64,000 nucleotides of DNA from Candidatus Saccharimonadales bacterium. GTDB lineage: Bacteria; Patescibacteriota; Saccharimonadia; QS-5-54-17. Location of the stretch: positions 599,633 to 663,632 of the forward strand of contig JBBDUI010000002.1 in the NCBI GenBank assembly GCA_040903985.1. The letters are read 5' to 3'. A model generated the notes under the pieces. It was not told where the DNA came from, searched no databases, and was given only the letters and a program-made list of their open reading frames with translations. The stretch's first letter is position 1. The number at the start of each line of letters is the position of its first letter. Made by a program: the position numbers and the translations under genes. Below are positions 2,459 to 21,570 of the stretch, piece after piece.

Positions 2459-2729
2459 GGTGTGCTTGTATCCTTGTTTATTTCTTTGAAATACTCTTAA
2501 AAGAGGTGCAGCACACCTTAACTGTATCGCGGTTATGGTTTAGGGACAAGGGGGTGAACCTCCACCTGCCGGTAAAACTTATTTTTCTCGAGATACACCA
2601 AAGAGCTCTCAGCTGTTGCCCTTCGACATTGTTTACTTGCTGCAGGTGTCGGGTGTATATAGATGCAGAAAGCTTCAGTTACTGATCGATACAATGGTTC
2701 AACTAGGTATTACGGCGTAGAGGCCTGGC

Positions 2730-4232: not shown

Positions 4233-4404
4233 AGTTTGTGTTGCCGCCCCTTGCTTGGACTAACTGCCACGTTATTTTATAATGTTTATGGTAGCTTAAA
4301 TCAGGTTTTAGGGCAAGGCGAAGTAAATCTCGGCCAGTAAAGCTCCCGTATTGTTATGTAGCAGAAGAAGCATTCACTGGGTCTGTTCTATATAACTACT
4401 GAGA

Positions 4405-4782: not shown

Positions 4783-4784
4783 AG

Positions 4785-6566: not shown

Positions 6567-6694
6567 AATCGTTATCTACGATTGTAGCATGGGAAGTATC
6601 TTAACTTGCGTTAAACATCAGGGGAATCTACACTTTATGGGTGGTATAGTATGACGAGTTTCATGTAAGCTGGTAGTGCTTTCCATTATTTTGG

Positions 6695-6770
6695 GGCGAG
6701 ATAGCTCAGTTGGTAGAGCAGTGGCCTGAAGAGCCTCGTGTCCTCGGTTCGAATCCGAGTCTCGCCACCA
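6695..6770 (+). tRNA. tRNA-Phe (anticodon GAA).
   Basis: Manual cloverleaf fold. Acceptor GGCGAGA/TCTCGCC is perfect. D-arm GCTCAGTTGGTAGAGC. Anticodon loop CTGAAGA. T-arm CTCGG-TTCGAAT-CCGAG. CCA is encoded. There is one U-U mismatch in the anticodon stem. Confidence 0.75.
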
Positions 6771-6926
6771 TAAGTATGAACTGACCGAAGCGTCAGTTCA
6801 TACTTATGGATGACTAAAAGTCATGGATTCGAACCGAAACCCCGCCTTGGCGGGGCGGTACGCTGAAGCGATACAGCGCGCAGTTGCTCGCAGCGAGCAC
6901 TGTTGAGCGGAAATCGCGCAAGCGAT

Positions 6927-6945
6927 AATCCGAGTCTCGCCACCA
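6927..6945 (+). repeat. 19-bp exact direct repeat of the tRNA-Phe 3' end (AATCCGAGTCTCGCCACCA). An att-like duplicate or integration scar.
   Basis: Identical to 6752..6770. A perfect 14-bp-stem hairpin (6772..6808) lies between the two copies. Confidence 0.7.
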
Positions 6946-6961
6946 CGCCAGACTAAACCCA

Positions 6962-6993
6962 CAGCTTCCGCAAAAACAGCGGAAGCTGTTTTT
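6962..6993 (+). terminator. Rho-independent terminator-like hairpin: 10-bp stem CAGCTTCCGC/GCGGAAGCTG, then a T5 run.
   Basis: Perfect inverted repeat followed by TTTTT, read directly from the sequence. Confidence 0.55.
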
Positions 6994-7015
6994 GCTTCCA
7001 GCTTTCAGTTTGTCC

Positions 7016-7057
7016 TCCTCTTCCGATTAAAACGTTACTGTTTTAATCGGAAGAGGA
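7016..7057. repeat. Perfect 17-bp-stem inverted repeat (TCCTCTTCCGATTAAAA / TTTTAATCGGAAGAGGA).
   Basis: Read directly. No T-tract follows, so it is probably not a terminator. Confidence 0.6.
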
Positions 7058-7213
7058 CAAGGAGATACTTATGAATGACTGAAAATTATGGACTCGTATC
7101 TGAAGCCCCGCTATAGGCCGGGTGATTCTTTGGAGCGAGCCAGCGCGCAGATACTGTATTTAGCTTTTCGATCGACTTTACTTCTAATTATGATTTACAT
7201 ATATTGGCTATAA

Positions 7214-7822
7214 ATGACGTTTCAATACCGTTGGCCTTGGACCTATAAACTTTTTATTCCTCTTACTCAGCGGAAGCATGTGCTTGAAGCTTTCAAGCAG
7301 GCCGTGGGGGTTGACGTTACCGTTCTTGATGTTGCAGGTGGATTTGGCCATATGAGACGCGCCATGGATAGCTCTGTTATCTACCGAGGGATAGATATTA
7401 ATAAGACATTCATTGCCTATGCACAGAAGCGAGGCACAGACATGCGTTATGGTGATATCTTCTATCCTTCCGCGTATGAATCATCGGATGTCGTTGTCAT
7501 GTCGGACGTGCTACATCACATACCTCGTGATAAATGGCCGGATTTATTGCGCCTTACCCTTAGTAGCGCTCAGCAAAGACTTGTCATTCTGGAGCCGGCC
7601 TTCTTGGGCGTATCGAATCGTAATCGCATGTTCGGTCCTCTAGTGGACTGGTTATTTAAAAAGCTCGACAATGACGGCACTGGAGAAGTTGAGACCTGGT
7701 ATACGAAGGATGAGTACGTCGCTATGCTCGAAGGTGGGCTCGGGCTCAAAGAGGCTGATGAGTTTAGTTTTAGTTGCGAGGATGTATTCCCGTACCTTTT
7801 GATTACTTACAGTAGGAAATAA
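7214..7822 (+). CDS. Class I SAM-dependent methyltransferase.
   Basis: Motif I LDVAGGFG followed by acidic D (GIDIN). Post-I motif VVVMSDVLHH. Confidence 0.65.
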   Translation: MTFQYRWPWTYKLFIPLTQRKHVLEAFKQAVGVDVTVLDVAGGFGHMRRAMDSSVIYRGIDINKTFIAYAQKRGTDMRYGDIFYPSAYESSDVVVMSDVLHHIPRDKWPDLLRLTLSSAQQRLVILEPAFLGVSNRNRMFGPLVDWLFKKLDNDGTGEVETWYTKDEYVAMLEGGLGLKEADEFSFSCEDVFPYLLITYSRK

Positions 7823-7989
7823 TATGAGTGAATCTAACTTCGGCTGATACAGATATCCCGAACACTTACATCCAGATGAGCTTGTATCAGTTATCGTTCT
7901 GCCGTTGCAGAAGGGCAGATACTTTCAAGACCTTAAAAACAGGTCCGTTGCGTAAGGCGCGGTGATTTACTACAATTAATAGGCGTTAT

Positions 7990-8065
7990 GCGGGTGTAGC
8001 TCAGTTGATAGAGCGCGTCCTTGCCAAGGACGAGGCCACGAGTTTGAGTCTCGTCACCCGCACCA
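7990..8065 (+). tRNA. tRNA-Gly (anticodon GCC).
   Basis: Acceptor GCGGGTG/CACCCGC. Anticodon arm CGTCC-TTGCCAA-GGACG. T-arm ACGAG-TTTGAGT-CTCGT. CCA is encoded. Confidence 0.85.
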
Positions 8066-9580
8066 AAGTTGAGTTTTAGCGCCGTCAGGCGCTTTTTCTT
8101 TTTCCTCAATTACCAAGTTAAAAGGGTAATTCACGGTATATGACAAGTTTTTATCGTTCAGTTTAAGGTTAGAAACTAGGAATCCTAAGAGCTTGGAACG
8201 CTGCCCCTCATCTGCAAGCTGAAACAGCTCTGAAACTCGACTTACTAAATCTAACAGATATGAAGCGGTTACTAAGAAGTCCTTATTCCCTCTGGTTAGA
8301 ACATTTAGCCTATCATTGAGCTGTTGCTGTCTATTTGTTAATGTCTCTACAATTTTATCGTGTTGTTCTGGTGATATTTTTTCATCTACTAGTTTTTCAA
8401 ACCACATTTCAATTTTTTTGTCGATTGAATCATATTCCTCTCGAACTGATAGTAACGACTGTGAGTAATATTTTTGTTGGTCGTCGTGGTTATCTTTTAG
8501 TTCTTTAATAACTTTGTTTAATAGCTTTTCCGGAATATTTATCCTTTTTACAAGAGCTTCCATAGAGCCTAGTACGAGCGATTCTGCGGTGTTGGGGTTG
8601 CTACACTTAGAATTTGCACACTTGAGGTACACCCAACGTTTACACTGGAACGGGGAAATAGTACGACCACACTTACCGCAGCTTAGAATATCGCTAAAAT
8701 TGAAGTTTAGACTATCCCATTTGGTTTTCATTGATTTGCGCTTGTCTTTAATGAGCTGACACCTATTAAACAAGGCTCGGTCTATTAATGGTGCGTAATT
8801 ATGAGGGTAATCTTTTCCTTTCTGAGTCATCATTCCGTAATAAAACTTATTATTAATTATAGCTTCGACAGCCCCTTTGGATAGGGTAGTTTTACCAGTT
8901 TTACTGCTCGTAAAACCAGCTTTTGCTAATTCTTTAGCGATAAGGCTGTACGGCATTCCTATTGCCCTTAGCTCAAACGCTTTTACAATGTAATGCGCTC
9001 TTTGCTCATCGACCACAATATCTTTTAATGGCTTGTTGGGATTACTAGTAGGTATAGATATGTTTTGATATCCTATTGGCGCCCTGTGAACCCATATACC
9101 ATCATTTAACATCTGTTCAAAACGACGCTTTACATTGTCTCGGCTTGAATCGGAATAGTACTTAGCAAGCAGCATTCCTATACCAAGCCTGAATAAGTCT
9201 GTGGCTGGCGAACTAGATGATATGAATAAATTGTCTGATGGAAAATGTAGTTCTATTTTATCTTTTTCCACGAGCTGTCCCATTATTCTCACTTCTCTCT
9301 GTGAGGCGTCACGAGTAAAACGGTCTATTTTATCAAAGACAATTATCGCCTGTTCATTCAAAGACTGGATTTCATCTTCAATCAAAGAAGCGAATTTTTG
9401 CCTGGCGTCCTTGTAGGCACTTTCATCGAACTCATGGTATCGCCATTCTTTGTCTTTATAGTTCAAAGTTCTAGCATAGTTTTCAAGCCGTTGCTTCTGT
9501 GCGGGTAACGCTTTACGTTGCTGCACGTCCGATACCCTAGCGATTAATAGAATTGGTTTTTTATTGGTAGTAGCATTCAT
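8054..9580 (-). CDS. Large serine recombinase (integrase). Its stop codon overlaps the tRNA-Gly 3' end.
   Basis: N-terminal resolvase domain (ILLIARVSD catalytic Ser). Recombinase domain. C-terminal zinc ribbon CGKCGRTISPFQC...CANSKC. 508 aa. Confidence 0.85.
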   Translation of the reverse strand: MNATTNKKPILLIARVSDVQQRKALPAQKQRLENYARTLNYKDKEWRYHEFDESAYKDARQKFASLIEDEIQSLNEQAIIVFDKIDRFTRDASQREVRIMGQLVEKDKIELHFPSDNLFISSSSPATDLFRLGIGMLLAKYYSDSSRDNVKRRFEQMLNDGIWVHRAPIGYQNISIPTSNPNKPLKDIVVDEQRAHYIVKAFELRAIGMPYSLIAKELAKAGFTSSKTGKTTLSKGAVEAIINNKFYYGMMTQKGKDYPHNYAPLIDRALFNRCQLIKDKRKSMKTKWDSLNFNFSDILSCGKCGRTISPFQCKRWVYLKCANSKCSNPNTAESLVLGSMEALVKRINIPEKLLNKVIKELKDNHDDQQKYYSQSLLSVREEYDSIDKKIEMWFEKLVDEKISPEQHDKIVETLTNRQQQLNDRLNVLTRGNKDFLVTASYLLDLVSRVSELFQLADEGQRSKLLGFLVSNLKLNDKNLSYTVNYPFNLVIEEKEKAPDGAKTQLWCG

Positions 9581-9747
9581 GATTATATCCTTTACAAATA
9601 TATTATATTGTTATTTAGTAGTATTTTCTATCGTTTTAGCTTTAGCCTTTTGAGCTAGGTCTATTTGAATGAGTACATCTAGAAATCCTGCAAGGTTCTT
9701 TAAGTCTTTAGGAGTTTCTGTAGATGGATTGTTGGGTTGTTTGGGGG

Positions 9748-10275
9748 TTACCATTTGAAACCCCCGTAATGTGTCGAGAAAATATCCGCAATATTATTCT
9801 CAGTATTTTTTAATTTTGGTCTTTTTAGAACTTCATATTCTTTACTGGTCACTATTGAAGCAGGTACACTCCTCAATTTGTTCTGGTAATCTCCTTGTTT
9901 TCGAGGTAGCTGTGTACAAACTTTTTGGTGTTCGTACAGTTTTATGACACAAGGTATTAGGTCGTATGTGTTAGAAGTTCCTCGCTTATGTCTGCGTTTA
10001 ACGAACTGTTTTTCTTCCAGTTTTCTCAATCGTCTTTGAACGGTTGAATAACCTTTGTGAGAGAACTTGCATAGCCGAGTAATTGACGGGTATACCCGAC
10101 TATTGTGGCTGAACCAAAATGTTAGCAAGTGTATCAGTGTTAATGTCTCACCGTCTGTTAGCCCAAGATGACCCTGGCAAGCTAACAGTAAGTTTGGTAC
10201 CTGAGTGAAGTTAAACTCCTCTATTTCAGGTGACCATTTCTCTGAAAAACCGTATTCCTTGTTATTGGTTTTCAT
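9748..10275 (-). CDS. Winged-helix DNA-binding protein (replication-initiator or regulator-like), island-borne.
   Basis: FTQVPNLLLAC...LTDGETLTLIHLLTF...GYSTVQRRLRKLEEKQFVKR resembles wHTH replication or regulatory proteins of mobile elements. Confidence 0.4.
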   Translation of the reverse strand: MKTNNKEYGFSEKWSPEIEEFNFTQVPNLLLACQGHLGLTDGETLTLIHLLTFWFSHNSRVYPSITRLCKFSHKGYSTVQRRLRKLEEKQFVKRRHKRGTSNTYDLIPCVIKLYEHQKVCTQLPRKQGDYQNKLRSVPASIVTSKEYEVLKRPKLKNTENNIADIFSTHYGGFKW

Positions 10276-10425
10276 CGTATTTTCCTTTGCGATGAAGCCA
10301 GCCCAACGGAACGGTTGTTATTGGTGTTGGGTGGCTTCGTTGCCGTTCCAAACACCACTTTAGACATTAAAAAAGGAGCTGTAATAAAGCTCCTAAATTA
10401 CTCGATTTTAGTCGGTTTTAACTTC

Positions 10426-11283
10426 TTAGGTTGGTAATATTTCTCGGTTTGTTACGGTTTCGTCACGGTTAGATTTTAGCCATTTTTCGAACCACTCAAG
10501 TTGTTCTCCGCTTATCTCTTTCCAAGGGGTGAACCTTATTGTTTTCTGTGTAGTTCTTTCAAAAAATATCTTCTTTAACTCTCTATTGAAGTGGCAGTTT
10601 CTAACAAGTTCACTCAAATCGGTTTTCGTTTTACAGCCTTCAACTTTTTCTTGTATCTCGTGAATGCTTATCGGTCTATCATGATTTTTAAGAATATAAC
10701 GCATGAAGTTATACGGTGGGCTGTCGTATCTGAGTGGCTTGCCAAGTATTACATTTGCCCCTTCGATTAAATCAATACTTGCATACCTAAGTCCGACAGT
10801 TATTAAGTTATTTCGTAAATCAATAAAAATAATTTCTGACCTGTTTTTCTTGGTTTGGGTAGATTTATGTTTTTTATCAGTAAGGACGCTGTCGTGGTAC
10901 TGGTATTTTTCCAAATCTTTCTTTCTAGCTTTGTTTCTCACTGACTCAAAATTGTCCAGAATATTAACTTTATAATTTCTCAAAGACTTCATTTTTCCAA
11001 AAAGATAGTGATAGTCTACGTCAAGAATATCTGCCTTAAACGTTGGGTTGTTCAATGATATAGATCCATCATCTTCTAACTTTTTATTTGGCTTGGTGTA
11101 GGAGTACTTAATACATTCATAATCATCTTGTAATGCGTCTAGAATATATTTCTGGTCTTCAAGTCGTACACCCGCAACGTCCAAGTCCTCTGAGCTGAAA
11201 GATACCTTGTTACCCGATAATGATTCTTGCAGGAACCTATCAATCAGGTTGATTGCGATTAATATTTTTTCACGACCAGTCAT
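10426..11283 (-). CDS. Hypothetical protein (285 aa), island-borne. Possibly Abi-like.
   Basis: ORF only. AT-rich codon usage matches the island. No motif recognised. Confidence 0.35.
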   Translation of the reverse strand: MTGREKILIAINLIDRFLQESLSGNKVSFSSEDLDVAGVRLEDQKYILDALQDDYECIKYSYTKPNKKLEDDGSISLNNPTFKADILDVDYHYLFGKMKSLRNYKVNILDNFESVRNKARKKDLEKYQYHDSVLTDKKHKSTQTKKNRSEIIFIDLRNNLITVGLRYASIDLIEGANVILGKPLRYDSPPYNFMRYILKNHDRPISIHEIQEKVEGCKTKTDLSELVRNCHFNRELKKIFFERTTQKTIRFTPWKEISGEQLEWFEKWLKSNRDETVTNREILPT

Positions 11284-11349
11284 TAGTGTAAATTATACTC
11301 TATAATCCCATTCCTCACTGTTCCGCTCTTAGTTTTTGAATTTTTATTA

Positions 11350-11841
11350 CTAATGAAAACTAGTCGTGTAATGTACGAAAACCACTCGTTTGAGTGATGA
11401 GTTTGGGTGTCTGTCTGCAAAGTCTTCAACAGCTTTTTGAGCTATCATAATCACGTCTTCGTATGGATTGCCGTGTAAGCCTGAGCCTAACGCAGGAAAA
11501 GCCATGGACTCTACACCATAGTCATCTGCAAGTTCTAACGAAGTATAAAAGCACTTATAGAGTATCTTTGGCTCTTTACCTTTATGGTAGCCGTATATAG
11601 GCGCAACTGTGTGTATGACGTATTGAGCTGGTAAGTCGTAGGCTTCGGTAATCTTTGCTTCGCCATAATCACAGCCACCAAGTTCTTTACAGGCATTTGC
11701 TAGTTCGGGTCCTGCGATTGAATGGATTTTACTGTCTACACCACCGCCAGGAATGAGCTGAGTGTTGGCTGCATTCACGATAATATCTGCATGGAGTTTT
11801 GTTATATCCCAATTCATTTCTTCTAGTCTTAATGTACGCAT
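11350..11841 (-). CDS. Stand-alone macro domain protein (ADP-ribose binding or hydrolase).
   Basis: IVNAANTQLIPGGGVDSKIHSIAGPEL and GLHGNPYE motifs are canonical macro-domain signatures. Confidence 0.8.
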   Translation of the reverse strand: MRTLRLEEMNWDITKLHADIIVNAANTQLIPGGGVDSKIHSIAGPELANACKELGGCDYGEAKITEAYDLPAQYVIHTVAPIYGYHKGKEPKILYKCFYTSLELADDYGVESMAFPALGSGLHGNPYEDVIMIAQKAVEDFADRHPNSSLKRVVFVHYTTSFH

Positions 11842-11842
11842 T

Positions 11843-12085
11843 CTAGTATTCGTTCCTCATGGCATTAATAAAATCTAGTAATGCTGGTTTACGGTTCATG
11901 CCATATTTTTTGTTGAGTTCTTTAGTTTTGGCGATAGTTGCTTCGTTAATACGATATATTACTGGTTGAGCGAGCTGTTTGGCAGTTTCTCTATCTATTT
12001 CGCCCGTCCTATATTTGTGTTGAATAGTAGCGATATCAGCTCTGTTTTTGACTGCTTGCTCAATGTTCTTTTCCATACTTCGCAT
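11843..12085 (-). CDS. Small hypothetical protein (80 aa) ending 1 nt upstream of the macro gene start. Possible partner (toxin or regulator).
   Basis: ORF with 1-nt spacing to the macro gene. No motif. Confidence 0.35.
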   Translation of the reverse strand: MRSMEKNIEQAVKNRADIATIQHKYRTGEIDRETAKQLAQPVIYRINEATIAKTKELNKKYGMNRKPALLDFINAMRNEY

Positions 12086-12212
12086 TCTGTATAGAAAATT
12101 AGAGGAATGCGAGCCGTAAAGTAGCCTTTCTGAGCTATTCTCAGCCTCTCTACGCTGTGTTTAGTGCAGATTAATAACTATGGACTATAAACAGAGGTGT
12201 TTATAGCGTACA

Positions 12213-15200
12213 ATGTTGCATAATATGGCTAGTCTATTTGGTAAAAACAAACTTCGTGATATAGCGACAAAACTACAAACTTCTGACTTAGAAGATAAAA
12301 TTGCAATCGTTAAAACTTGGCACAATGATTATCACAAAGGTAGCTTAAAAGCAGATAAAGAAACTTCCCGCGAGCAAGCCTACAATCATGACTTTTTCAT
12401 AAAGATTTTAGGTTATAAAGAAAAACCTACAGTGCCGTATAGCTTTGAGCCAAAAGCTACTACTGATAAAGGTCAACTCCCTGACGCTGTTCTTAGCCAC
12501 ACTGACGTAACACAAGACATCAAGAATATTGCAGCTGTAGTGGAATTAAAGGGTGCAAGTATTGAGTTAGACAGACCACAACGGCGTGAGGGCAACATGA
12601 GTCCTGTGCAACAGGGGTTCAAGTACAAGACTCAGTATAGAAACTGTCCATTTGTGGTTGTCAGTAACTTTTGGGAGTTCAGGCTATACCACGACAATCA
12701 ACTTGATTATGAGCTATGGACACTCGATGACTTAGTTGACCCTGATGACGACTATCTCAAGTTCAAGACTTTCTACACACTTCTCCACAGTGATAACCTC
12801 ACAACACCAAAGGGAGCAAGCAAGACAGAGGGCTGGCTCAGTGATATACGTTATGAGCAGGAAGAAATCGGAAAGAAATTCTACAAGATGTACCGAGAAG
12901 CTCGTCTCGATCTGCTAAGAGACATTTACAGGCACAATCAAACTGTACGTTCAGATATTGATATGGGTATAGAAAAAGCCCAAAAGATTATTGACCGCAT
13001 AGTATTTGCCTGTTTCGCAGAGGACCGAGGCTTGCTTCCAGACAATACCTTGCAACGAGTTATTCAAGCTGCCGATAAGTCAGCGTTTGGTGGTTCGCTC
13101 TGGTCAACCTTCAAAGCGTTCTTTGAAGCAATTGATGTTGGTAGCGAAAAACTAGAAATACCAGACGGCTACAACGGTGGCTTATTTGCACATGATCCGA
13201 CTCTTAACGCCCTCAAAGTAAGTGATGAGCCACTACGAAAAGTAGCAAACATCAGTAACTACAACTTTGAGGAAGATTTAAGCGTTACGATTCTTGGCCA
13301 TATCTTTGAACAGTCTATTAGTGACCTAGAAGAAATCAAAAGCAAAGTCGAAGAAACTAAAAGCCTAGATTCTTTTCAGCAGTCACGAAGAAAAAAAGAC
13401 GGCATTTTCTATACTCCTGACTACATAGTGCGTTATATCGTTGATAATTCACTCGGTGCTTACTTGCGAGGTGAAGAAGAACGTCTAAAGTCTGAGTTTA
13501 AGCTCAAGGGCGACATTACAGACAAAAATTATGAAAAGAGAGAACGCCAAGCATACAGTAAGTATCAAGAATTTTTACAGAATGTAAAAGTCGTTGACCC
13601 TGCTTGTGGCTCAGGTGCATTTTTGGTTTATGTTTTTGATTATCTACTTGCAGAAAATAAACGTGTAGCAAGTATTCTCGGCAATAACTTGTTTAGTAGT
13701 GAGGATTACATAAAATCAATCCTACAGAACAATATTTATGGTGTTGACCTCAATGATGAATCGGTTGAGATTACTAAACTATCGCTTTGGCTTAAATCTG
13801 CTCAAAAAGGCAAAAAACTCACAACACTGGACAACAACATCAAATGTGGCAACAGTTTAATTGATGACTCGGAAGTTGCTGGCGATAAGGCGTTTGTGTG
13901 GGAAAAAGAATTTCCTGAAATCTTTGCCAAAGGTGGCTTTGATATAGTTGTCGGAAACCCCCCATGGGTGTTCACTCGTGAAGGTGGTTTTACGCAAGGC
14001 TCAAAAGATTTTATAAGTGCGTACATAGAAAATAAAAGCATTACTACTGAGTCCCGCGGTCTTAATATCCAAAAAGGCAAAATTAATCTATATGCAGTGT
14101 TTATCGCTAAGGGCTTAGACCTTCTTACGAAAGGCGGTGTACTTTCATACATTGTCCCGAATAGCATACTTCGAGCTACGCCTTATGAGGCGTTTCGAAA
14201 GTATTTACTCGATAACTTTGCCATTAAACAGATAGTTAATCTTGGAGCAGGTATATTCAGTGGAGTTACTGCTTCATCAGTCATATTGTCCATTGGAAGA
14301 AAAGAAGGCATATCTAGTAACTACGAAACAGAAATCATTATAGACATACAAAATCCAAATGAAAAATCTAGGCTAGAGCAAAATAACTTCTCGAACAACG
14401 CCAGTTACGTTTTTAACATACTCGCAAAAAAGGAAGAAGTAACGTTAACAACAAAAATACTATCAAATCATATCGTTCTAGGGAATATAGCAAAATTTAT
14501 TTCGCCAGGTATTGACGGTGATAAGTCTAAATATGTTAGTAAAGAACGGCTGAGTGATGATTATAAGCCATTATTATTTGGTAAATCATTCGGTAGGTAT
14601 ACGATCAATTTTGATAATAACTACATTCTCTATGACAGGTCAAAATTGAATAGGGCGAGAAAAGAAGAAATCTTCACATCAGACAAAATCATTATACAAA
14701 GAATAAGCGGCGGACTTAATCCTTTAAGATGTACGCTTGATGTAGAACAGTTCTATACGTTCAACTCAGTCAATAACGTCATACTTAAAGATGACAGTGG
14801 CGTTTCAGCTCATTATGTACTGGCGCTACTGAACTCAAGGCTGCTCAACTGGTACTATTCAACTAACTTCTCTAACAAATCAACTCTTACGGTAAATATA
14901 TCCAAGACTTTTCTTGAAAAGCTACCGATAGCAATAGGGTTAAAAGGTGAGCAGGACTCTTTAGAGAAATTGACCAAGAAAATACTTAGCTTATACAGTA
15001 AGCAAGACCAGGTTTTGACTCGTATAGAGAAAGTCATTTTGTCAGAATATCAAATAGAAAAATGGCCGACTAAACTCAATAAATGGTGGTTAATCGACTT
15101 TGCTACTTTCGTAAAAACACTCAAGATAACCCTCACGCTTTCACAAAAAGATGAATTGATGATACTTTACGAAAAATATCGCAAAGAGTTACTGGCGCTT

Positions 15201-15308
15201 GAGCAAGAAATCAAAAACACTGATTATGAAATCAACCAGTCTGTCTATTCACTGTACGGTTTAACAAATGAAGAAATTGAAATTATTGATAAGCAAACAA
15301 ATGAATAA
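12213..15308 (+). CDS. Type IIG/IIL single-chain restriction-modification enzyme (MmeI/Eco57I-like): N-terminal PD-(D/E)xK nuclease, gamma-class N6-adenine MTase, C-terminal TRD.
   Basis: N-terminal LPDAV...VVELKG (PD..ExK). MTase motif I VVDPACGSGAFLV and motif IV VVGNPPWVF. 1031 aa. Confidence 0.8.
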   Translation: MLHNMASLFGKNKLRDIATKLQTSDLEDKIAIVKTWHNDYHKGSLKADKETSREQAYNHDFFIKILGYKEKPTVPYSFEPKATTDKGQLPDAVLSHTDVTQDIKNIAAVVELKGASIELDRPQRREGNMSPVQQGFKYKTQYRNCPFVVVSNFWEFRLYHDNQLDYELWTLDDLVDPDDDYLKFKTFYTLLHSDNLTTPKGASKTEGWLSDIRYEQEEIGKKFYKMYREARLDLLRDIYRHNQTVRSDIDMGIEKAQKIIDRIVFACFAEDRGLLPDNTLQRVIQAADKSAFGGSLWSTFKAFFEAIDVGSEKLEIPDGYNGGLFAHDPTLNALKVSDEPLRKVANISNYNFEEDLSVTILGHIFEQSISDLEEIKSKVEETKSLDSFQQSRRKKDGIFYTPDYIVRYIVDNSLGAYLRGEEERLKSEFKLKGDITDKNYEKRERQAYSKYQEFLQNVKVVDPACGSGAFLVYVFDYLLAENKRVASILGNNLFSSEDYIKSILQNNIYGVDLNDESVEITKLSLWLKSAQKGKKLTTLDNNIKCGNSLIDDSEVAGDKAFVWEKEFPEIFAKGGFDIVVGNPPWVFTREGGFTQGSKDFISAYIENKSITTESRGLNIQKGKINLYAVFIAKGLDLLTKGGVLSYIVPNSILRATPYEAFRKYLLDNFAIKQIVNLGAGIFSGVTASSVILSIGRKEGISSNYETEIIIDIQNPNEKSRLEQNNFSNNASYVFNILAKKEEVTLTTKILSNHIVLGNIAKFISPGIDGDKSKYVSKERLSDDYKPLLFGKSFGRYTINFDNNYILYDRSKLNRARKEEIFTSDKIIIQRISGGLNPLRCTLDVEQFYTFNSVNNVILKDDSGVSAHYVLALLNSRLLNWYYSTNFSNKSTLTVNISKTFLEKLPIAIGLKGEQDSLEKLTKKILSLYSKQDQVLTRIEKVILSEYQIEKWPTKLNKWWLIDFATFVKTLKITLTLSQKDELMILYEKYRKELLALEQEIKNTDYEINQSVYSLYGLTNEEIEIIDKQTNE

Positions 15309-16023
15309 GGCCAACGATAACTTAAAAAACAATAAGCTAGACTGGACGGCTATAGTAACAAAAGCGAGCTTAGGCGCTGTCCCTATTGCAGGTAGTTTTT
15401 TAGCGGAGATTGTAGGAACGTTAATCCCTAATCAACGAATCGAAAGAATCGCTGAGTACGTTACAGAACTTAATAATAAGCTAGAGACTATCCCTGAACA
15501 TGTAGTAAAGAGATTAAGGAATAACGAAGAATTTATTGATTTAGTTGAGGAGAGTATTATTCGGGTCGCCCGCTCAATATCAGAAGAAAGACGCAAATAC
15601 ATTTTGAATATCGTTCAAAATGGTATTTCAGATGATGACTCAACTGTTAATAACGCAAAATATCTTTTGAGACTGTTATCAGAGATAAACGACAATGAAG
15701 TAATCTGGCTTCGTTATTTTCACGAGCGGACACTAAACGATAAGGCTCATTTTCAAGCATTGCACAAAAATATTCTTTCACCCGTACAAGTTGTACTAGG
15801 GTCTAGTAAAGAGGAACGCCAACGAGGGGCAGTTCAGGAAAGCTACAAAGAACATCTGGAACGACTTGGCTTAATTGAAAATAATATCAAAATGAACAAA
15901 GACCTTGGTGTGCCAGAATATGATACATTCACTAATAAGCCAAAGGTGTCATATACTCAGACCACAACATTGGGTAACATGCTCTTAGAGAAGATTGGTT
16001 TAATAAATAATGCAGCAAAATAG
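15301..16023 (+). CDS. Hypothetical protein (240 aa), translationally coupled to the RM gene (ATG 15301 overlaps RM stop 15306-15308).
   Basis: The track ORF 15268..16023 has an in-frame Met at 15301 that overlaps the RM stop. No motif recognised. Confidence 0.45.
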   Translation: MNKANDNLKNNKLDWTAIVTKASLGAVPIAGSFLAEIVGTLIPNQRIERIAEYVTELNNKLETIPEHVVKRLRNNEEFIDLVEESIIRVARSISEERRKYILNIVQNGISDDDSTVNNAKYLLRLLSEINDNEVIWLRYFHERTLNDKAHFQALHKNILSPVQVVLGSSKEERQRGAVQESYKEHLERLGLIENNIKMNKDLGVPEYDTFTNKPKVSYTQTTTLGNMLLEKIGLINNAAK

Positions 16024-16777
16024 TTTCAAACAAGTCGCATACGACATTCTAAAAGAAGCCGGTAACCCACTCCACAGTAAGGAGATTACTAAATTAGCAC
16101 TCCAACGAGGATTGCTAGTAACAGACGGCAAAACACCAGAGGCAACCATGAACGCTCAGCTAGTGGTTGATATTAATAAAAAAGGTATCAAATCAAAGTT
16201 TATCAAAACAGCCCCTTCAACATTTTATTTGAACGATAATTCTGAACCCATTGAAACAAAAGAAGAAATAGCAGAAGAAGCTAAAAAAGAAGCTGTCATC
16301 TCAAACGTATCATCAAAGCAGAAAGGCGATATTGCTGAGGCTAGAGTTGCCGAACTTATCACCCTCTACGGTGATAATGAGGTGTCTTGTTTCAAGCCAA
16401 TTTCCGATGACGAAGGAATTGACTTAATTGTAAAGCCTAAGGGGCAATTGAAATCACTGTATATTCAAATCAAGTCACGATTTGGCAGTAACCCAAGTGA
16501 AATATTCACCGCTACTGTCAAAGCCTCAGGGGTAGTAGAAAATTATTCAATGGTCTACTTGTTTTGCTACTTTGATACTTCAACTGGCGATATGTGGGAC
16601 TATGTATGGCTTGTCCCTGCACCAGACTTCAAACGGCTAGCGAACAATCTTCAAGGCGGTAGTTTGTATGGATTTGTAGCAGGTAGGAAAAAATCGGACA
16701 GTAATAAATGGGACCAGTATCTCATACACAAAACCGACTTATCGGAGTCAATAATTAATCAACTTTCAAGACTGTAG
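16010..16777 (+). CDS. HARE-HTH domain fused to a PD-(D/E)xK-type endonuclease domain (restriction-endonuclease-like).
   Basis: N-terminus FKQVAYDILKEAGNPLHSKEITKLALQRGL...KTPEATMNAQL matches the HARE-HTH pattern. C-terminus D-EGIDLIVKPK...IQIKSR is a D..E.D..K nuclease core. Confidence 0.55.
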   Translation: MQQNSFKQVAYDILKEAGNPLHSKEITKLALQRGLLVTDGKTPEATMNAQLVVDINKKGIKSKFIKTAPSTFYLNDNSEPIETKEEIAEEAKKEAVISNVSSKQKGDIAEARVAELITLYGDNEVSCFKPISDDEGIDLIVKPKGQLKSLYIQIKSRFGSNPSEIFTATVKASGVVENYSMVYLFCYFDTSTGDMWDYVWLVPAPDFKRLANNLQGGSLYGFVAGRKKSDSNKWDQYLIHKTDLSESIINQLSRL

Positions 16778-16788
16778 ATTTGTAAATT

Positions 16789-18261
16789 ATGTACCTGTCT
16801 AAATCTGACTTCCTAAAATATCAATGTTGTCCAAGTTATCTATGGCTATGGAAATACAAAAAAGAAGTCGTACCCGTAGATGATGAGGAAGCAATTAATC
16901 AGCGACTAGAACAAGGTAATGAAGTTGAGCGTTTTGCTCGTGGCTTATTTCCTAACGCTGTTCTGGTTGGTTCTTACGGTAAGAAGGCTCGTAACGAAAC
17001 CGAGAGGCTTGTAAGTAATGATGTGCAAGCAATATTCCAAGCTACTGTTTATACAGACAAAGAATTATTGGCAATGGCAGATATTATTGAATTTGATGAA
17101 GCCACGCAATCTTGGGATTTGTACGAAGTAAAATCTACCAACTCTGTTAAAAAAGAACATATATATGACCTTGCTTTTCAGCGAGTGGCATTTGAAGACG
17201 CTGGCTATAAAATTGGTAAGGTAATTGTCATTCATTTAGATAAAACTTACGTTCGCAAAACAGCAGTAGAGCCATCTGAACTTTTAACGCAAACCGATGT
17301 TACAGAAAAGGTTGAAAAAATACTACCAACAATACGGCAACAAGCCTATGACGCTATTGAAGTATTAAAACAAAACGATGAGCCAAAAAAGTGTAGTTGT
17401 AGACTTAAAACTCGTTCAGGACACTGCTCGACATTTAATTATCTTAATCCCGATATTCCTGAGTATTCTGTTTTTAATATTTCAAGAATAGGTGCTAAGA
17501 ATCTGGCAGTACTTGTAGATGGAGACATTCATAACGTACATGATGTACCAGAGGACATAAAACTTTCTATTGGTCAGAAAAATCAAGTACTGGTGGCTAG
17601 GAGTAAAGAGCCGATTATAAACAGGCCAGCTATTCAAGAATTGTTAAGCGAACTTGAATTTCCTCTTTATTTCCTAGACTACGAAACCGTTTCATCGGCC
17701 TTACCAATGTTTAATGGCTGTACACCATTCCAACAAATACCGTTCCAGTATTCTTTACACGTTCTGAGAGAGCCTGACGGCGAACTTGAGCATTATGAGT
17801 ATCTTGGGCGTGATAGCACCAATCCACCAATGCCAGAGCTACTCGCAAGCCTACAGAACAATATCGGAGATACAGGTAGCGTTATTGTTTGGTATAAAGT
17901 CTTTGAAACAGGACGCAACACAGAAATGGGTAAAGCATTCCCTGAATACGCGGAGTTCCTTGAGGGCATAAATAATAGAGTGTTTGATCTAATGGACATA
18001 TTCAGTAAACAGCATTATGTACACCACGATTTCAAAGGCAGTAGCTCAATCAAATATGTGTTACCAGTCCTTGTGCCTGAGTTCTCATACAAGGAAATGG
18101 ATATACAGAACGGATTAGTCGCTTCAATACGGTGGTATGACGCCGTTATGGGTGCAGTAGACGAAGAACAAGCCCAAAAGACTTACGAAGCACTCTTGAA
18201 GTACTGCTGTTTAGATACTTTGGCAATGGTTAAGATTTACGAATACTTAAAGAAACTATAA
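16789..18261 (+). CDS. Cas4-like / RecB-family PD-(D/E)xK nuclease with Fe-S cysteines, fused to a C-terminal domain of unknown function (DUF2779-like).
   Basis: N-terminal YQCCPSYLW. MADIIEFDE...LYEVKS (D..E.K). C-x-C-x8-C cluster CSCRLKTRSGHC. 490 aa. Confidence 0.55.
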   Translation: MYLSKSDFLKYQCCPSYLWLWKYKKEVVPVDDEEAINQRLEQGNEVERFARGLFPNAVLVGSYGKKARNETERLVSNDVQAIFQATVYTDKELLAMADIIEFDEATQSWDLYEVKSTNSVKKEHIYDLAFQRVAFEDAGYKIGKVIVIHLDKTYVRKTAVEPSELLTQTDVTEKVEKILPTIRQQAYDAIEVLKQNDEPKKCSCRLKTRSGHCSTFNYLNPDIPEYSVFNISRIGAKNLAVLVDGDIHNVHDVPEDIKLSIGQKNQVLVARSKEPIINRPAIQELLSELEFPLYFLDYETVSSALPMFNGCTPFQQIPFQYSLHVLREPDGELEHYEYLGRDSTNPPMPELLASLQNNIGDTGSVIVWYKVFETGRNTEMGKAFPEYAEFLEGINNRVFDLMDIFSKQHYVHHDFKGSSSIKYVLPVLVPEFSYKEMDIQNGLVASIRWYDAVMGAVDEEQAQKTYEALLKYCCLDTLAMVKIYEYLKKL

Positions 18262-18311
18262 GTTAAACGTAAGCAATATAGTTATCAACCAAACAACGAT
18301 ACAATAATCTT

Positions 18312-19787
18312 ATGGTTGCAAATCAACAAAAAGGAAAACAACTAATAACTCTCAATGAGCATATTGGTGTACCTGTAGAAAAACTTGAAGAACTGGGTAT
18401 CCTAAACGCAATAATCGGCATAGATACTAAATTATTCATTGACCCTAAGTTGATAAATGTTACTGATATACCTGAACTTGATAATGTTGTAGAGGACATT
18501 CGTGCCTATGTTCGTAAACTGATATCTGTAAATAATCAGGCAGCAAAATCCGAACGTATTAGACAGATTGCAATAAAGATGATTGCCATTGAAGAACCAA
18601 AAGGTCTATCAATCGGTTACGGAAACAGCAGGGATAGTGGTACTTCCATTTCAGAAAGTGTGGCAAGGAAATCACTGCAATCATTATCTGAAATGATTTC
18701 AATCGGTGTAGAAGACCTTGAAGTTATGGAAATGCTAGGACTGTTTATAAGCAGATTCGGAGCTGACAGCATTAGTGATTTAATATCACACATCATTTAT
18801 CCCCGACTTTGTGCGTATACCCAAAGAGTCTCAAAAGAACTTGGTATAAAGGTTAAGGTATTTGAAATAAACGAAGCAAAGTATAACCTACCTGCACACC
18901 CCAAAAAAGATACTCCGCTTATTTTTGTTCCATTAGTGATATTGAGCGAACTTCCATTGGCGACTAGTTGGGAAGAAATTGCAGTTGCCGCCCAGTTAAA
19001 CGAAAAATGCAGACAAGCCTTTAACGACTTAGTCGGAGCCGATATTGCAAATTACGCAAAAAAGATTAAGAAGAACCCAGCACTTGTTACTGGTTCAATT
19101 GAAGCAATGAAAACCCTTATAGCCATCTATGACGAAGCTGTTGTAAGACCATATGATAGACAAAAAGACCCCGCTGGATACGTTCGTCTAAGCAAATTCG
19201 CGGCACAACTTAACGACAAGCTGCAATCACCAAACACGGTTATTAAAAATACAAACGAAATGGTTGAGTTTATTGACGGACAAGTAATAGACCAGTTTCG
19301 TCGTAATATTGAAAAACTAGGAGCTAACACCTTGCTGTACCACCGAAAAGGTGAATCTCCTGATTATTTGAAGCCAGTCAGAGAAGACGCTGCACAGATT
19401 ATTTTCCATACAGCTGCTGACCACATCTGTCAAAATAACGACATTTTGGTAAGTAGGGAGCCAGCGGTTGGTAATGGTGCTGTGGATTTCACAATTGGTC
19501 AAGGTTCTAGCAATAAGGCGGTCGTTGAAATTAAAAAATCAAACAATAAGAACCTGATTGACGGATATAATTTACAATTACAAGAGTATGTGGAACGAGA
19601 GAAAGCGGCTATCGCATTCTATGTAGTTGTATTAGTAACTCAAGCAAGTGTGGATAACAAAGATTCACAGTTGAACGAACTTAAAAAAATGTATGCTTCT
19701 AAATTACGCAAAAAAGAACAATGCCCAAGATTAGTAATTATTAATGGTCTTGAACAATTAAGCCCAAGTAAGATGAGGAGCAATTAA
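18312..19787 (+). CDS. Hypothetical 491-aa protein with a C-terminal PD-(D/E)xK-like motif.
   Basis: GNGAVDFTIGQGSSNKAVVEIKKS (D-x13-E-x-K) near the C-terminus. The rest is unrecognised. Confidence 0.4.
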   Translation: MVANQQKGKQLITLNEHIGVPVEKLEELGILNAIIGIDTKLFIDPKLINVTDIPELDNVVEDIRAYVRKLISVNNQAAKSERIRQIAIKMIAIEEPKGLSIGYGNSRDSGTSISESVARKSLQSLSEMISIGVEDLEVMEMLGLFISRFGADSISDLISHIIYPRLCAYTQRVSKELGIKVKVFEINEAKYNLPAHPKKDTPLIFVPLVILSELPLATSWEEIAVAAQLNEKCRQAFNDLVGADIANYAKKIKKNPALVTGSIEAMKTLIAIYDEAVVRPYDRQKDPAGYVRLSKFAAQLNDKLQSPNTVIKNTNEMVEFIDGQVIDQFRRNIEKLGANTLLYHRKGESPDYLKPVREDAAQIIFHTAADHICQNNDILVSREPAVGNGAVDFTIGQGSSNKAVVEIKKSNNKNLIDGYNLQLQEYVEREKAAIAFYVVVLVTQASVDNKDSQLNELKKMYASKLRKKEQCPRLVIINGLEQLSPSKMRSN

Positions 19788-20039
19788 CTAAGTAATCAAA
19801 TCTGCCGACAGATTAAATTGCCTTACTAAATCCTGTAACTTATAATTGTCTACATTGCCTTGGTTAGCGGTTAGAAATACACCAGCTATCCGGCACCAAA
19901 TGCTTAATTATCAAACTATGAACAAACCCTGACTACTTTATTGAAGCTGAGTATGGACAATAACCCTAGACTGCACAGTTGCGCCATCAACCATAACCGC
20001 TGTAGAGTATGGATATAACAAACGGTAGTAAAACATTCT

Positions 20040-21407
20040 ATGCCCCGCCTACCAATCCCCGGATCAGACGAAGGAACATGGGGTGATATCCTCAACGAGT
20101 TCCTCAGCGTCGAACTAGCTAGTGATGGCTCTCTCAAACGCGGTACCGAGCTAACCCAGAAGCTCAACCGTAGTGGCGACACCATGGGCGGCAATCTCAG
20201 TCTTGGTGGAAACCGTATCATCGGGTTAGCCGACCCCACCAACGCTACTGATGCGGCTACTAAGAACTATGTAGATACAGCTGATATAGCATCCCACACC
20301 ACCACCCACCAATCCGGCGGAACTGACGAACTGAACGTCGATGGCCTCTCCGGTGAATTAGCCGACCCTCAAATACCGAAAGGCCACTCACTGGGTGGTA
20401 TAGAACACAGTGCTACCACCCTGGCTGCCCTCAACGCCAAGCTCAGTGACGCCACCCTTGATGATGCCAGTGCTACTCGTACCCCAACTGAGCACGGTAA
20501 TGAAGCCCATTCCGCTACCTTCATCACGGCTGCCGAAGCCCCTGTTCAGTCCGTCAACGGTAACACCGGTATTGTTTCACTCGATGCCAGTGATGTAGGA
20601 GCTGATCCCTCCGGTACCGCTACCACAGCTGTTACTGATCATGAGGCAGCAGCAGATGCACATTCAGCTACCAGCATTGAGTTCGATCCGACCGGCCTTT
20701 CATACACTACAGCGATAGATGTCCAACAAGCCATCACCGAGCATGATCAGGCGATTGGTGATGGTACGTCGGGGCCGCCGCAGGTAGACACGTTCACAGC
20801 GTCGGGGACATGGGTCAAGCCGACCGGAGCGAAGCTTGTCGTTGCTCATGTCGTTGCTGCCGGTGGGGGAGGATCAGAACAGGATGGGTTCGGCGACGGT
20901 GGCGGAGGTGGGGGCGGGTCGCTACTCATTGTTGTATCCGCTGATGAACTTGATGCGACCGAGATAGTCACGGTCGGCTCAGGAGGGGCTGGTGCAACGG
21001 CCGGTGCATCGGCGGGTAATGGTGGCAGCAGCGCTTTCGCAGGCTACAGTGTCACCGGCGGGGGAGGATCGCGTAACCCTACAGGAAACAGCAAAGGTGG
21101 CGGGCACGACGGAGGTGCCGGCAGCTCTGGTGGAGCCCCCGTCGGTGCAGCTTTTGGTGGTGGTGGGGGGGGCCGGAGTTCGGGCTCGGCAATCCCTGGG
21201 GCTGGTTCGGTCTACGGCGGCGGCGGCGGTAGTACAAATGGAGCAGCCGGTGGGCCTTCGACGTTCGCTGGTGCAGGTGGTGTTGGGTCGACTGGCAGCG
21301 GAACGGGCGGTGCGGGCGGCATTCCCGGCGGCGGCGGCGGCGGGTCGCTGACTGGAACGGGCGGAGCAGGTGCCCGTGGCGAGGTTCGTATTACAACCTA
21401 CTTCTGA
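20040..21407 (+). CDS. Tail-fibre-like protein (455 aa) with a C-terminal Gly-rich module.
   Basis: MPRLPIPGSDEGTWGDILNEFLSVE leader. GDTMGGNLSL...TNATDAATKNYVDT collar. FTASGTWVKPTGAKLVVAHVVAAGGGG followed by about 200 aa of Gly-rich sequence ending GGAGARGEVRITTYF. Confidence 0.7.
   Translation: MPRLPIPGSDEGTWGDILNEFLSVELASDGSLKRGTELTQKLNRSGDTMGGNLSLGGNRIIGLADPTNATDAATKNYVDTADIASHTTTHQSGGTDELNVDGLSGELADPQIPKGHSLGGIEHSATTLAALNAKLSDATLDDASATRTPTEHGNEAHSATFITAAEAPVQSVNGNTGIVSLDASDVGADPSGTATTAVTDHEAAADAHSATSIEFDPTGLSYTTAIDVQQAITEHDQAIGDGTSGPPQVDTFTASGTWVKPTGAKLVVAHVVAAGGGGSEQDGFGDGGGGGGGSLLIVVSADELDATEIVTVGSGGAGATAGASAGNGGSSAFAGYSVTGGGGSRNPTGNSKGGGHDGGAGSSGGAPVGAAFGGGGGGRSSGSAIPGAGSVYGGGGGSTNGAAGGPSTFAGAGGVGSTGSGTGGAGGIPGGGGGGSLTGTGGAGARGEVRITTYF
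21165..21172 (+). repeat. G8 homopolymeric tract inside the Gly-rich coding region of 20040..21407.
   Basis: Read directly (tggtGGGGGGGGcc). Confidence 0.8.
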
Positions 21408-21570
21408 TCGGGTTAGCATATGTGGTATGCGCAGTAATGATCGACAATGTCACCAGTCGTTCGCCTGTCCTCGAAATCGAATCTGGTATAAATAACGATA
21501 TTAATTTATTGCAAAACGATAAATAGTATGCAAGACTAGTCATAAGATAATTATAGAAAAGGTGCAATAG

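Follow-up and report, generated by a model that had tools for sequence, protein, structure and literature searches.

The stretch of DNA analysed here (hereafter the window) comprises 64,000 nucleotides of contig JBBDUI010000002.1 (positions 599,633 to 663,632 of the forward strand; assembly GCA_040903985.1) from a metagenome-assembled genome of Candidatus Saccharimonadales (Saccharibacteria, TM7, Candidate Phyla Radiation (CPR)). Positions 8060-19900 of the window very probably constitute an 11.8-kb Saccharibacterial integrative element whose own large serine recombinase (LSR) directed its insertion into the GCACCA end of a tRNA-Gly(GCC) gene. The element spans from a core at 8060-8067, formed by the last 6-8 nt of the tRNA gene, to the same core at 19893-19900, and host DNA begins again at 19901. 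The features that define its two ends are the following.

7990-8065, plus strand: tRNA-Gly(GCC) gene (ARAGORN), the host target, intact after insertion and with a genome-encoded CCA
8054-9580, minus strand: LSR in its integrated (truncated) form, 508 amino acids, ending in ...TQLWCG and a stop, with Resolvase and Recombinase domains
8060-8067, plus strand: attL core GCACCAAA, the same 8-mer as at 19893-19900
8078-8103, plus strand (that of the tRNA): intrinsic-terminator-like hairpin AGCGCC-GTCA-GGCGCT followed by a T-run (TTTTCTTTTT), found by a terminator scan
19788-19898, minus strand: displaced LSR 3' end of 36 codons and a stop (WCRIAGVFLTANQGNVDNYKLQDLVRQFNLSADLIT and stop), which includes the attP P arm, found by tblastn with attP-form tails
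19893-19900, plus strand: attR core GCACCAAA, at a GC step (19850-20000) and crossed by Logan contig L090

The island between the cores (8068-19892; 11,825 bp, or about 1.6% of the ~0.75-Mb genome) had a GC content of 38.0%, against 49.4% for the remaining window; the host value of ~49% is unusually high for Saccharibacteria. In 1-kb bins, GC ranged from 35.5 to 40.6% inside the island and from 40.7 to 55.0% outside it, with no overlap between the two sets of values (Mann-Whitney p = 2.5e-7), and the drop at ~8.1 kb and the rise at 19.85-20.0 kb were both sharp steps. A first-pass annotation of the sequence had proposed an integrative element inserted at the tRNA-Gly 3' end by an LSR, with a right boundary near 19.9 kb, and had suggested a GC plot; the proposal was borne out by the GC steps, by LSR-free relatives and by both junctions, and the boundary by the attR core together with the step beside it. 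Its estimate of 30-36% GC for the island was too low, as no 1-kb bin fell below 35% and 31-34% was reached only in a few 300-nt windows. The attL junction was also present inside Logan contig L003, and the attR junction inside Logan contig L090, which ends at 20083. As these two contigs are independent assemblies from two sequencing runs, the island is not an artefact of binning or assembly.

The recombinase matched Pfam Resolvase (PF00239, 5.6e-13, residues 12-156), Pfam Recombinase (PF07508, 4.2e-11) and the integrase family PHROG 95 (2.2e-54). Residues R15, S17 (the nucleophile serine) and D18 were invariant in 19 LSR homologues, as were the zinc-ribbon cysteines C301, C304, C321 and C326 among the homologues, several of which carry PF13408. 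An AlphaFold2 (AF2) model of a homologue showed long helices over residues 342-421, and the top Foldseek matches of the model were full-length serine integrases (9dxd, 7.6e-16; PhiC31; 4kis). By sequence, the family profile reached only the catalytic domain of TP901-1 in the PDB (E 2e-4), and single-sequence PDB searches with the LSR, and with the DUF2779 and DUF8370/8371 proteins encoded further along the island, returned no matches. Given the fold match of the homologue's model, the invariant nucleophile serine and the zinc-ribbon cysteines, the assignment of the window enzyme to the large serine recombinases, as a distant branch, is well supported. It is the sole recombinase of the island, no tyrosine integrase (Phage_integrase domain) being found among the island open reading frames (ORFs). 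The LSR family is large and almost purely Saccharibacterial: more than 680 homologues were retrieved at E < 1e-20, and the best 120 were 50-71% identical and ~500 amino acids long, all named ones coming from Saccharibacteria. Two relatives outside this group were also seen, in Kitasatospora sp. (L067, 38% identity) and in a 3-kb contig of a gammaproteobacterial metagenome-assembled genome (L051, 46%), neither with an adjoining tRNA within the available sequence; L051 may be a mis-binned contig.

The LSR stop codon had been reported in the first-pass annotation to overlap the tRNA by 12 nt, and this was exact, since reverse-complementing tRNA positions 8054-8065 (acceptor 3' strand, discriminator A and CCA) gives the last four LSR codons, TGG TGC GGG TGA. 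The C-terminus ...(L/I)WCG was nearly invariant in the family, W-C being encoded by TGG TGC, the reverse complement of GCACCA, and longer homologues ran on as ...WCGLGDSNSWPLPWQGSALTTELNPH, the antisense translation of a tRNA. When 79 genome loci and 79 metagenome loci, together holding 153 LSR copies, were scanned for tRNA genes, the LSR 3' end was found to meet a tRNA gene 3' end on the opposite strand in 112 of the 153 copies. The tRNAs concerned were Gly(GCC) (74 copies), Asn (23), Arg (9), Trp (2), Ser (2), Gln (1) and Gly(TCC) (1), and the target tracked the LSR clade. Enzymes at least ~49% identical to the window protein used Gly(GCC), except two at 49-50% that used Trp, and those 36-42% identical mostly used Asn, Arg or Ser, with a few exceptions (L058 with Gly(GCC), L062 with Gly(TCC)).

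The family-wide core GCACCA (8060-8065 in the window) consists of the last acceptor-stem base pair, the discriminator A and the CCA. For 17 other elements, attL and attR had only TGGTGC (GCACCA on the tRNA strand) in common, and no direct or inverted repeats longer than chance linked the ends of the window island. In L007, L024, P0045, P0047, P0062, P0099 and P0101, the LSR ORF ran past TGGTGC for ~35 more codons, and the homologues with such extended frames in L007 and L024 did not adjoin a tRNA. The consensus of the additional C-terminal tail was WC-x-I-x-D-x-(F/L)-Q-T...DYKLK..L...F.LSG.L(I/L). The sequence that follows TGGTGC in L007 (TTTGGTGCCAGATAGCC...AATGTAGAC...CAATTTAACCTAGCGGGAGATTTG) was homologous to the window minus strand just inside 19893-19900 (TTTGGTGCCGGATAGCTGG...AATGTAGAC...CAATTTAATCTGTCGGCAGATTTG), and tblastn with attP-form tails matched window positions 19898-19791. 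The tail segment was also found in ~25 other loci, always on the LSR strand, always starting from TGGTGC and 5-10 kb upstream of the LSR, where it bounded elements of 6.5-11.4 kb with a conserved inner P arm, TGGTGC-a(a/g)gATAGTTGACGc. Comparison of these loci places attP in the 3'-terminal part of the LSR coding sequence, as judged from the extended ORFs of the attP forms together with the presence of the same tail, homologous past TGGTGC, at the distal junction. In the excised form of the window element the tail would be rejoined in frame, so that the enzyme would end in WCRIAGVFLTANQGNVDNYKLQDLVRQFNLSADLIT and have a predicted full length of 544 amino acids. The reconstructed attP reads …GCTATCCG-GCACCAAA-GTTGAGTTTTAGC… (predicted junction CCAGCTATCCGGCACCAAAGTTGAGTTTTAGCGCC), and the reconstructed attB …GTCACCC-GCACCAAA-TGCTTAATTATC… (predicted junction GTCACCCGCACCAAATGCTTAATTATCAAAC). 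All recognised LSR domains were retained in the truncated form. Every one of 20 distinct tails was open for at least 35 codons, and differences between tails fell at codon positions 1, 2 and 3 in proportions of 29%, 21% and 50%, which together argue for protein-level selection on the tails well beyond a half-site of ~25 bp. The tails ended variously in ...DLIT, ...LLQA, ...LITA, ...NLI or ...NLLY, and no consistent -LAA ending was seen among them.

Circular, integrated and tandem states were all encountered within the superfamily. In the clade that uses tRNA-Asn, the 10,728-bp contig L162 carried a direct repeat of 55 bp at its termini, as expected of a circle, and encoded a full-length 534-amino-acid LSR with no tRNA, while L163 (LSR region 2480-6425) contained the same LSR (99.6% amino acid identity) in integrated form. 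Nucleotide homology between the two stopped exactly 6 nt into tRNA-Asn (L162:3953 = L163:6425). For the family, a circular and an integrated form of one LSR, with the homology break at the tRNA end, lend indirect support to recombination between attP and attB. In L165, the LSR (85% amino acid identity) ended in tRNA-Asn and the tail lay at the far end of the element; the tail peptide motif was kept in this clade despite a different DNA sequence. In L024, two elements were found in tandem (LSRs at 10007-11605 and 19914-21401): one LSR ended in tRNA-Gly; the other, 8.3 kb further in, reads at its 3' end into the distal arm of that first element and so regains its full length. C-terminal LSR remnants were present at the tRNA-Gly hotspot in L007 (7600-7779), L008 (6-125) and L030 (2743-3063). 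In L007 the full LSR was seen to be inverted relative to the remnant that abuts tRNA-Gly. A 5.7-kb contig with an attP-form LSR (L091) was considered as a further circle and rejected, as it is not circular. Target, core, boundaries, the split of the gene and its reversibility, and the three states within the superfamily are all established by sequence comparison.

The terminator-like hairpin begins thirteen nucleotides beyond the CCA and lies antisense within the last ~15 codons of the LSR gene. Its T-run is the antisense of Lys/Glu codons, which read EEKEKA in the window and KKK (AAGAAAAAG) in most relatives. A GC stem of 5-7 bp with a tetraloop-size loop and a T-run was found at this position in 38 of 41 distinct family sequences (median z of -3.6 against shuffles), with at least ten different stem sequences, so that it is the pairing and not the sequence that has been maintained. 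The peptide encoded over the hairpin varied in step (for example APDGA, PPEGG, SLSAH and ALSGS). Each hairpin sequence was folded singly, and a fixed-register covariation count was dropped because the stems lie in slightly different registers. From its sequence and position, the hairpin would be expected to end tRNA transcription, to restore tRNA 3'-end formation and to block read-through into the convergent LSR gene. In several other loci, the host arm at the distal junction was observed to carry a GC hairpin at the same distance from the core (L018 ~2290-2318, L020 ~4080-4109, L021, L023 and L030); these are probably native tRNA-Gly terminators displaced by integration. No hairpin was present in the host-side arm of the window (19901-19950).

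Relatives of the host locus were compared next to the element. In L083-L087, which share an orthologous histidine kinase (52-66% identity), tRNA-Phe and tRNA-Gly remained adjacent, and tRNA-Gly was followed by a GATase, an Mtd_N protein or DUF2238, with no LSR and no island genes. The island-free tRNA-Gly genes of these relatives end in the same CACCCGCACCA as that of the window. The first-pass annotation had suggested that related genomes be searched for an empty tRNA-Gly site, and held that the same genes at this locus in relatives would argue against insertion; island-free tRNA-Gly genes were indeed found and the other carriers of the LSR had different cargo, so the insertion was not refuted, although a precise empty site with both flanks was not recovered. 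Cargo genes in sixteen other elements included HTH/MerR regulators, cation efflux proteins, DUF305 proteins, CsoR-type repressors, CrcB, aldo-keto reductases, deaminases, methyltransferases and nucleotidyltransferases. A clade with LSRs 54-60% identical to that of the window (L011-L039) had a backbone of its own upstream of the LSR, at ~6.6-10.0 kb in the locus, encoding proteins of ~430, ~72 and ~390 amino acids, none with a Pfam match. The GC content of the comparison elements was 39-45% and matched that of their hosts. As the window island is at 38% in a 49% host, this points to its acquisition from a lower-GC Saccharibacterial lineage.

The remaining features of the island are listed below.

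9602-9630, minus strand: promoter-like site TAGAAA-17-TATAAT upstream of the LSR start, a weak consensus match (10/12 positions)
9611-9754, minus strand: ORF of 47 amino acids between the DnaD-like gene and the LSR, called as a gene in L003
9748-10275, minus strand: DnaD_N/HTH_36 protein, replication-initiator-like or regulatory (HTH_36 4.6e-9, DnaD_N 2.3e-7)
10426-11283, minus strand: protein of 285 amino acids, no family matches
11350-11841, minus strand: macro-domain protein of the ADP-ribose / O-acetyl-ADP-ribose hydrolase type (Pfam Macro 1.3e-35)
11843-12085, minus strand: protein of 80 amino acids, forming a two-gene unit with the macro gene (PHROG 10302, 1.3e-7)
12213-15308, plus strand: type IIG (MmeI-like) restriction-modification (RM) enzyme (PADLOC REase_MTase_IIG 4.6e-118)
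15268-16023, plus strand: protein of 251 amino acids, weak Abi_alpha resemblance (7.3e-5, 23.3 bits against a cut-off of 29)
16010-16777, plus strand: HARE-HTH protein (1.4e-18), possible PD-(D/E)XK nuclease domain (PDDEXK_5 3.6e-4, below cut-off)
16789-18261, plus strand: DUF2779 protein (6.5e-42) with a Cas4/RecB-like N-terminus (PADLOC Cas4 3.6e-6)
18312-19787, plus strand: DUF8370/DUF8371 protein of 491 amino acids (Pfam), candidate defence protein (PADLOC PDC-M36A 1.4e-11; PHROG 30194 7.5e-63)

Promoter-like sites were no more numerous in the region than in shuffles. The 47-amino-acid ORF had no protein-family matches and is, by its position, a candidate directionality factor. The DnaD-like protein matched PHROG replication-initiation families weakly (5.7e-8), and DnaD_N/HTH_36 homologues adjoined the LSR in L004, L006, L010 and L171, making the gene part of the backbone of this sub-clade; the C-terminal part of the 285-amino-acid protein was present in L010, L069 and L075. 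The macro protein also matched the NCBIfam O-acetyl-ADP-ribose deacetylase model (7.4e-46, below the model cut-off). Its 80-amino-acid partner was 71% identical to a 77-amino-acid protein of the sister element L171 (region 7149-8395), in which the following gene encodes an ADP-ribosylglycohydrolase in place of a macro-domain protein. A conserved small protein thus looks to be paired with two non-homologous ADP-ribose-removing enzymes, and the pair may form an ADP-ribosylation-reversal module with an anti-toxin or anti-defence role.

The RM enzyme (Pfam Eco57I 9.5e-42, TaqI_C 3.6e-23, MmeI_Mtase 1.2e-14 and MmeI_N 8.7e-6) heads a block of five tightly packed plus-strand genes. The 251-amino-acid protein had no PADLOC match, and the HARE-HTH protein was 35% identical to one encoded beside a type III RM system in L171. 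Genes 66-76% identical to that of the DUF2779 protein were found in L033 (96-1559), L035 (151-1617), L027 (298-1764), L042 (965-2422) and L007 (18417-19880). The LSRs of these five loci were less conserved (52-60%), which suggests that the DUF2779 gene has been exchanged or strongly selected among elements. The first-pass annotation had correctly recognised the macro-domain protein and the MmeI-like RM enzyme. Its three nuclease-like proteins received weak support (PDDEXK_5 below its threshold, the Cas4-like match, and NucS_C in the 491-amino-acid protein at E 0.08), and its description of a classic defence island held in that one recognised defence system, the type IIG RM enzyme, is present; the other defence-type signals (PDC-M36A, Abi_alpha, the Cas4-like N-terminus and DarG at 0.009) were sub-threshold or candidate matches, and "classic" does not suit an element with a serine recombinase, a 6-8 bp core, attP in the LSR gene and a terminator of its own. 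The gene to the right (20040-21407), which it had called tail-fibre-like, encodes a Gly_rich_2 protein that lies outside attR, is of host-like or higher GC, and has only a short tail-fibre-type motif in common with the Mtd_N protein of a relative.

Several further observations were made on the locus. Both L003 and L090 break at ~12.2 kb (12206-12221), between the divergent backbone and RM gene blocks, for which strain-level variants (module exchange) or an effect of coverage may be responsible; L090 terminates at 20083, barely within the Gly-rich gene. Over the C-terminal half of that gene (window 20750-21400), GC reaches 63-71% directly beside the 38% island, and it then falls to 36% at 21500-21800, after which a DUF2975 and HTH_3 gene pair follows. 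On the left side, a gene for a 202-amino-acid class I methyltransferase (window 6771-7989) parts tRNA-Phe from tRNA-Gly by 1.2 kb. The corresponding gap is 6-44 nt in L083-L087 and ranges from 7 nt to ~8 kb in other Saccharibacteria, and a second insertion hotspot may exist on the 3' side of tRNA-Phe. Comparison of window 4405-8065 with L086 9711-12149 showed an inversion of the block of histidine kinase, response regulator, tRNA-Phe and tRNA-Gly with respect to the flanking genes, an FAD oxidase on one side and tRNA-Leu/tRNA-Cys/LemA on the other. Rearrangements cluster around the tRNA-Phe and tRNA-Gly genes.

The mechanism proposed is as follows. Comparison shows that, in the circular, attP-bearing form, the LSR is ~36 residues longer and carries the conserved tail. 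Crossover within GCACCA detaches this tail, which comes to lie at the other extremity of the element (19788-19898), and the LSR ORF of the integrated form enters the tRNA and stops at the TGA of the acceptor stem (WCG and stop). The tRNA stays intact, with its downstream sequence exchanged for element DNA that supplies a hairpin and T-run. The full-length enzyme, which could be made only from the circle, would be the integrating form, and the truncated enzyme, made only from the chromosome, would differ in stability, activity or directionality, so that the integration state would be written into the enzyme itself. The element presumably moves among Saccharibacteria lineages, which would explain 38% GC in a 49% host. 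Its cargo, namely the type IIG RM enzyme together with its four companion genes, and the small-protein/macro module, may benefit the host, and the RM block may protect either the host or the element. Confidence in the element and its anatomy is high.

A number of points weigh against this account. The 8-bp core GCACCAAA, for which a check of both junctions had been suggested at the outset, is not significant alone (4 matches against 1.7 expected), and draws its validation from the adjoining inner sequence, which is homologous to intact attP junctions of other loci. A precise empty site with the same two flanks was not found for the window species: exact-protein look-ups of flanking genes matched only the window genome and its own reads, the right flank is non-syntenic in the nearest relatives, in which the downstream genes differ, and an exact search of JGI metagenomes for the reconstructed attB junction gave no match. 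No circular form was found within the tRNA-Gly clade, and the clade of L162 is only ~40% identical, with a low-coverage contig whose circularity depends on the 55-bp repeat. No recombination directionality factor, which serine integrases require for the reverse reaction, was identified. In the AF2 model of an attP-form homologue, the predicted local distance difference test (pLDDT) score of the tail was below 50, so the model is uninformative on tail docking or role. The suggested difference in activity between the truncated and full-length enzymes is reasoned from the arrangement of the gene, and the terminator function from nucleotide sequence. Lastly, the only recognised defence system is the type IIG RM enzyme, the calls for the remaining cargo being weak.

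The strongest alternative accepts the boundaries and the split as real and holds that the C-terminal exchange has no regulatory meaning, the truncated enzyme being tolerated, or inactive in a one-way insertion, and the tail conserved only through its overlap with the attP P arm or for a function other than reporting the integration state. This is a serious possibility, though clearly short of an even chance. LSRs need only their catalytic, recombinase and zinc-ribbon domains, AF2 confidence for the tail is low, and the first ~25 nt of the tail do coincide with the conserved P arm; conservation, however, reaches 50-105 nt from the core, well past the size of an LSR half-site. Overlap with the P arm also fits poorly with the coding signature (the uniformly open frames and the excess of third-position differences) and with a peptide motif that was kept in the tRNA-Asn clade although the DNA differs. 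Such evidence shows selection on the tail peptide and leaves aside what the peptide does; a regulatory role for it is suggested by the arrangement of the gene, and the case for that role falls only a little below the balance point.

A composite origin was also considered, in which a small LSR element (8.06-12.2 kb) was joined by a separately acquired RM/defence block (12.2-19.9 kb). The coincident breaks of the two independent Logan assemblies between the divergent blocks are compatible with this, as is the different defence block of L171, a sister element with a similar backbone. GC is uniform over both halves, however, and the displaced LSR tail and P arm at 19788-19900 place the RM block within attL-attR, so that it would leave with the LSR; exchange of modules inside the element would be compatible with the main account. 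The composite origin is therefore held to be improbable. Still less probable is a prophage, prophage remnant or phage satellite. LSRs are typical phage integrases (PHROG 95), the DnaD-like protein resembles phage replication initiators and the right neighbour bears a tail-fibre-type motif, but that neighbour lies outside attR at host or higher GC, and no capsid, terminase, portal, tail or lysis genes were detected in the 11.8 kb with Pfam or PHROG. Megablast of window 6-22 kb against 50,697 phage records gave no match, the LSR family profile found no relative in IMG/VR, and sister elements carry genes for metal resistance, CrcB, reductases and regulators. That the low-GC block is an ancestral part of the chromosome with a domesticated recombinase, as the LSR homologues beside tRNA-Gly in many Saccharibacteria might be read, is scarcely credible and already contradicted by nearest relatives without the island, cargo that differs in every genome, a GC content 11 points under that of the host, an attL/attR pair with the displaced gene end intact, and the known tandem copies, remnants and circular form.

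For the integrative element with its split LSR gene, the points added by the analysis are the Saccharibacteria-wide serine integrases at tRNA CCA ends, the integration-dependent LSR C-terminus and the antisense terminator in the same codons. A more far-reaching interpretation, doubtful when taken as a whole, would make of these a large undescribed Saccharibacterial LSR superfamily that targets the universal CCA end of tRNA genes, changes its tRNA species from clade to clade, and uses attP within the gene as a sensor of the integration state. The 36-residue tail of the episomal form would then bias the enzyme towards integration or mark it for turnover, and the tail-less form would be excision-competent or quiescent. 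Directionality, or another regulatory role, would be partly encoded by the site, and the same nucleotides would encode the antisense tRNA terminator. Serine integrases have been described as targeting protein-coding genes or intergenic sites, tRNA targeting being a hallmark of tyrosine integrases, and a whole serine integrase family anchored on the tRNA CCA end alters this picture. With attP in the gene, the recombinase sequence itself would report integration, and directionality control would be testable with two proteins and four short sites. The LSR C-terminus on one strand and a covarying terminator and tRNA end on the other would be a case of dual coding under overlapping constraints. Mobile elements of Saccharibacteria and the CPR are barely characterised and genetic tools for these organisms are scarce; a compact, self-contained module for integration into a defined tRNA-Gly attB that most Saccharibacteria possess is an obvious candidate tool. 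For the window genome, the insertion would mean the gain of an RM system from a lower-GC donor lineage.

Compared with known systems, the window LSR has the order of resolvase, recombinase and zinc ribbon with coiled coil seen in PhiC31, Bxb1, TP901-1 and A118/LI Int, and the element resembles those of serine integrases of phages and integrative and conjugative elements in its very short core, the lack of long flanking repeats and an attP next to int. Its LSR shows only a distant sequence relationship to these enzymes and has as its target the CCA terminus of a tRNA gene rather than a protein-coding gene; attP also lies within the LSR coding sequence, as indicated above, such that the C-terminus depends on the integration state. 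Classic tRNA islands use a P4/lambda-type tyrosine integrase and are bounded by a repeat of 15-50+ bp of the tRNA end. The window element is like them in its insertion at a tRNA 3' end, the intact tRNA, atypical composition, variable cargo and tandem accretion, and unlike them in having no tyrosine integrase, a distal repeat of only GCACCAAA and its own terminator for the tRNA. A large survey of thousands of LSR target sites never mentions tRNA (PMC10083194), and tRNA attB sites of mycobacteriophages have been described for tyrosine integrases (PMC9262239; PMC8092301). A literature search of incomplete coverage yielded no paper on serine integrases at tRNA genes in Saccharibacteria or Patescibacteria, for which reason the arrangement of attP in the LSR gene, tRNA-end target and terminator is called apparently undescribed and not certainly new.

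In mycobacteriophage BPs and its relatives (clusters G, N and P), integration-dependent immunity relies on an attP within the repressor gene: on integration at the 3' end of a tRNA gene, a C-terminal segment is lost and host sequence supplies a new stop, the integrase being a tyrosine recombinase, the common core ~35 bp and the removed part an ssrA-like degradation tag (PMC9262239; PMC4557955). The window element shares with these phages an attP in coding sequence, a tRNA 3' end as target and a host-derived stop. It differs in that the interrupted gene encodes the serine recombinase, 6-8 bp make up the core, the tails are without -LAA-type tags and the element is not a phage. In archaeal SSV-type "suicidal" integrases, attP likewise lies within the integrase gene, which is split by integration into a tRNA so that the complete integrase exists only in the episome; these are tyrosine recombinases, found only in archaea according to the review cited, and the split parts large portions of the enzyme and presumably leaves it inactive (PMC8371274). 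In the window system, by contrast, a bacterial (CPR) serine recombinase loses a tail of ~36 amino acids and its recognised domains remain intact. BPs-type immunity and SSV-type integrases are the two closest functional analogues, and the window element is set apart from both by its recombinase class and core length, by how much of the gene is split off and by the terminator that it adds.

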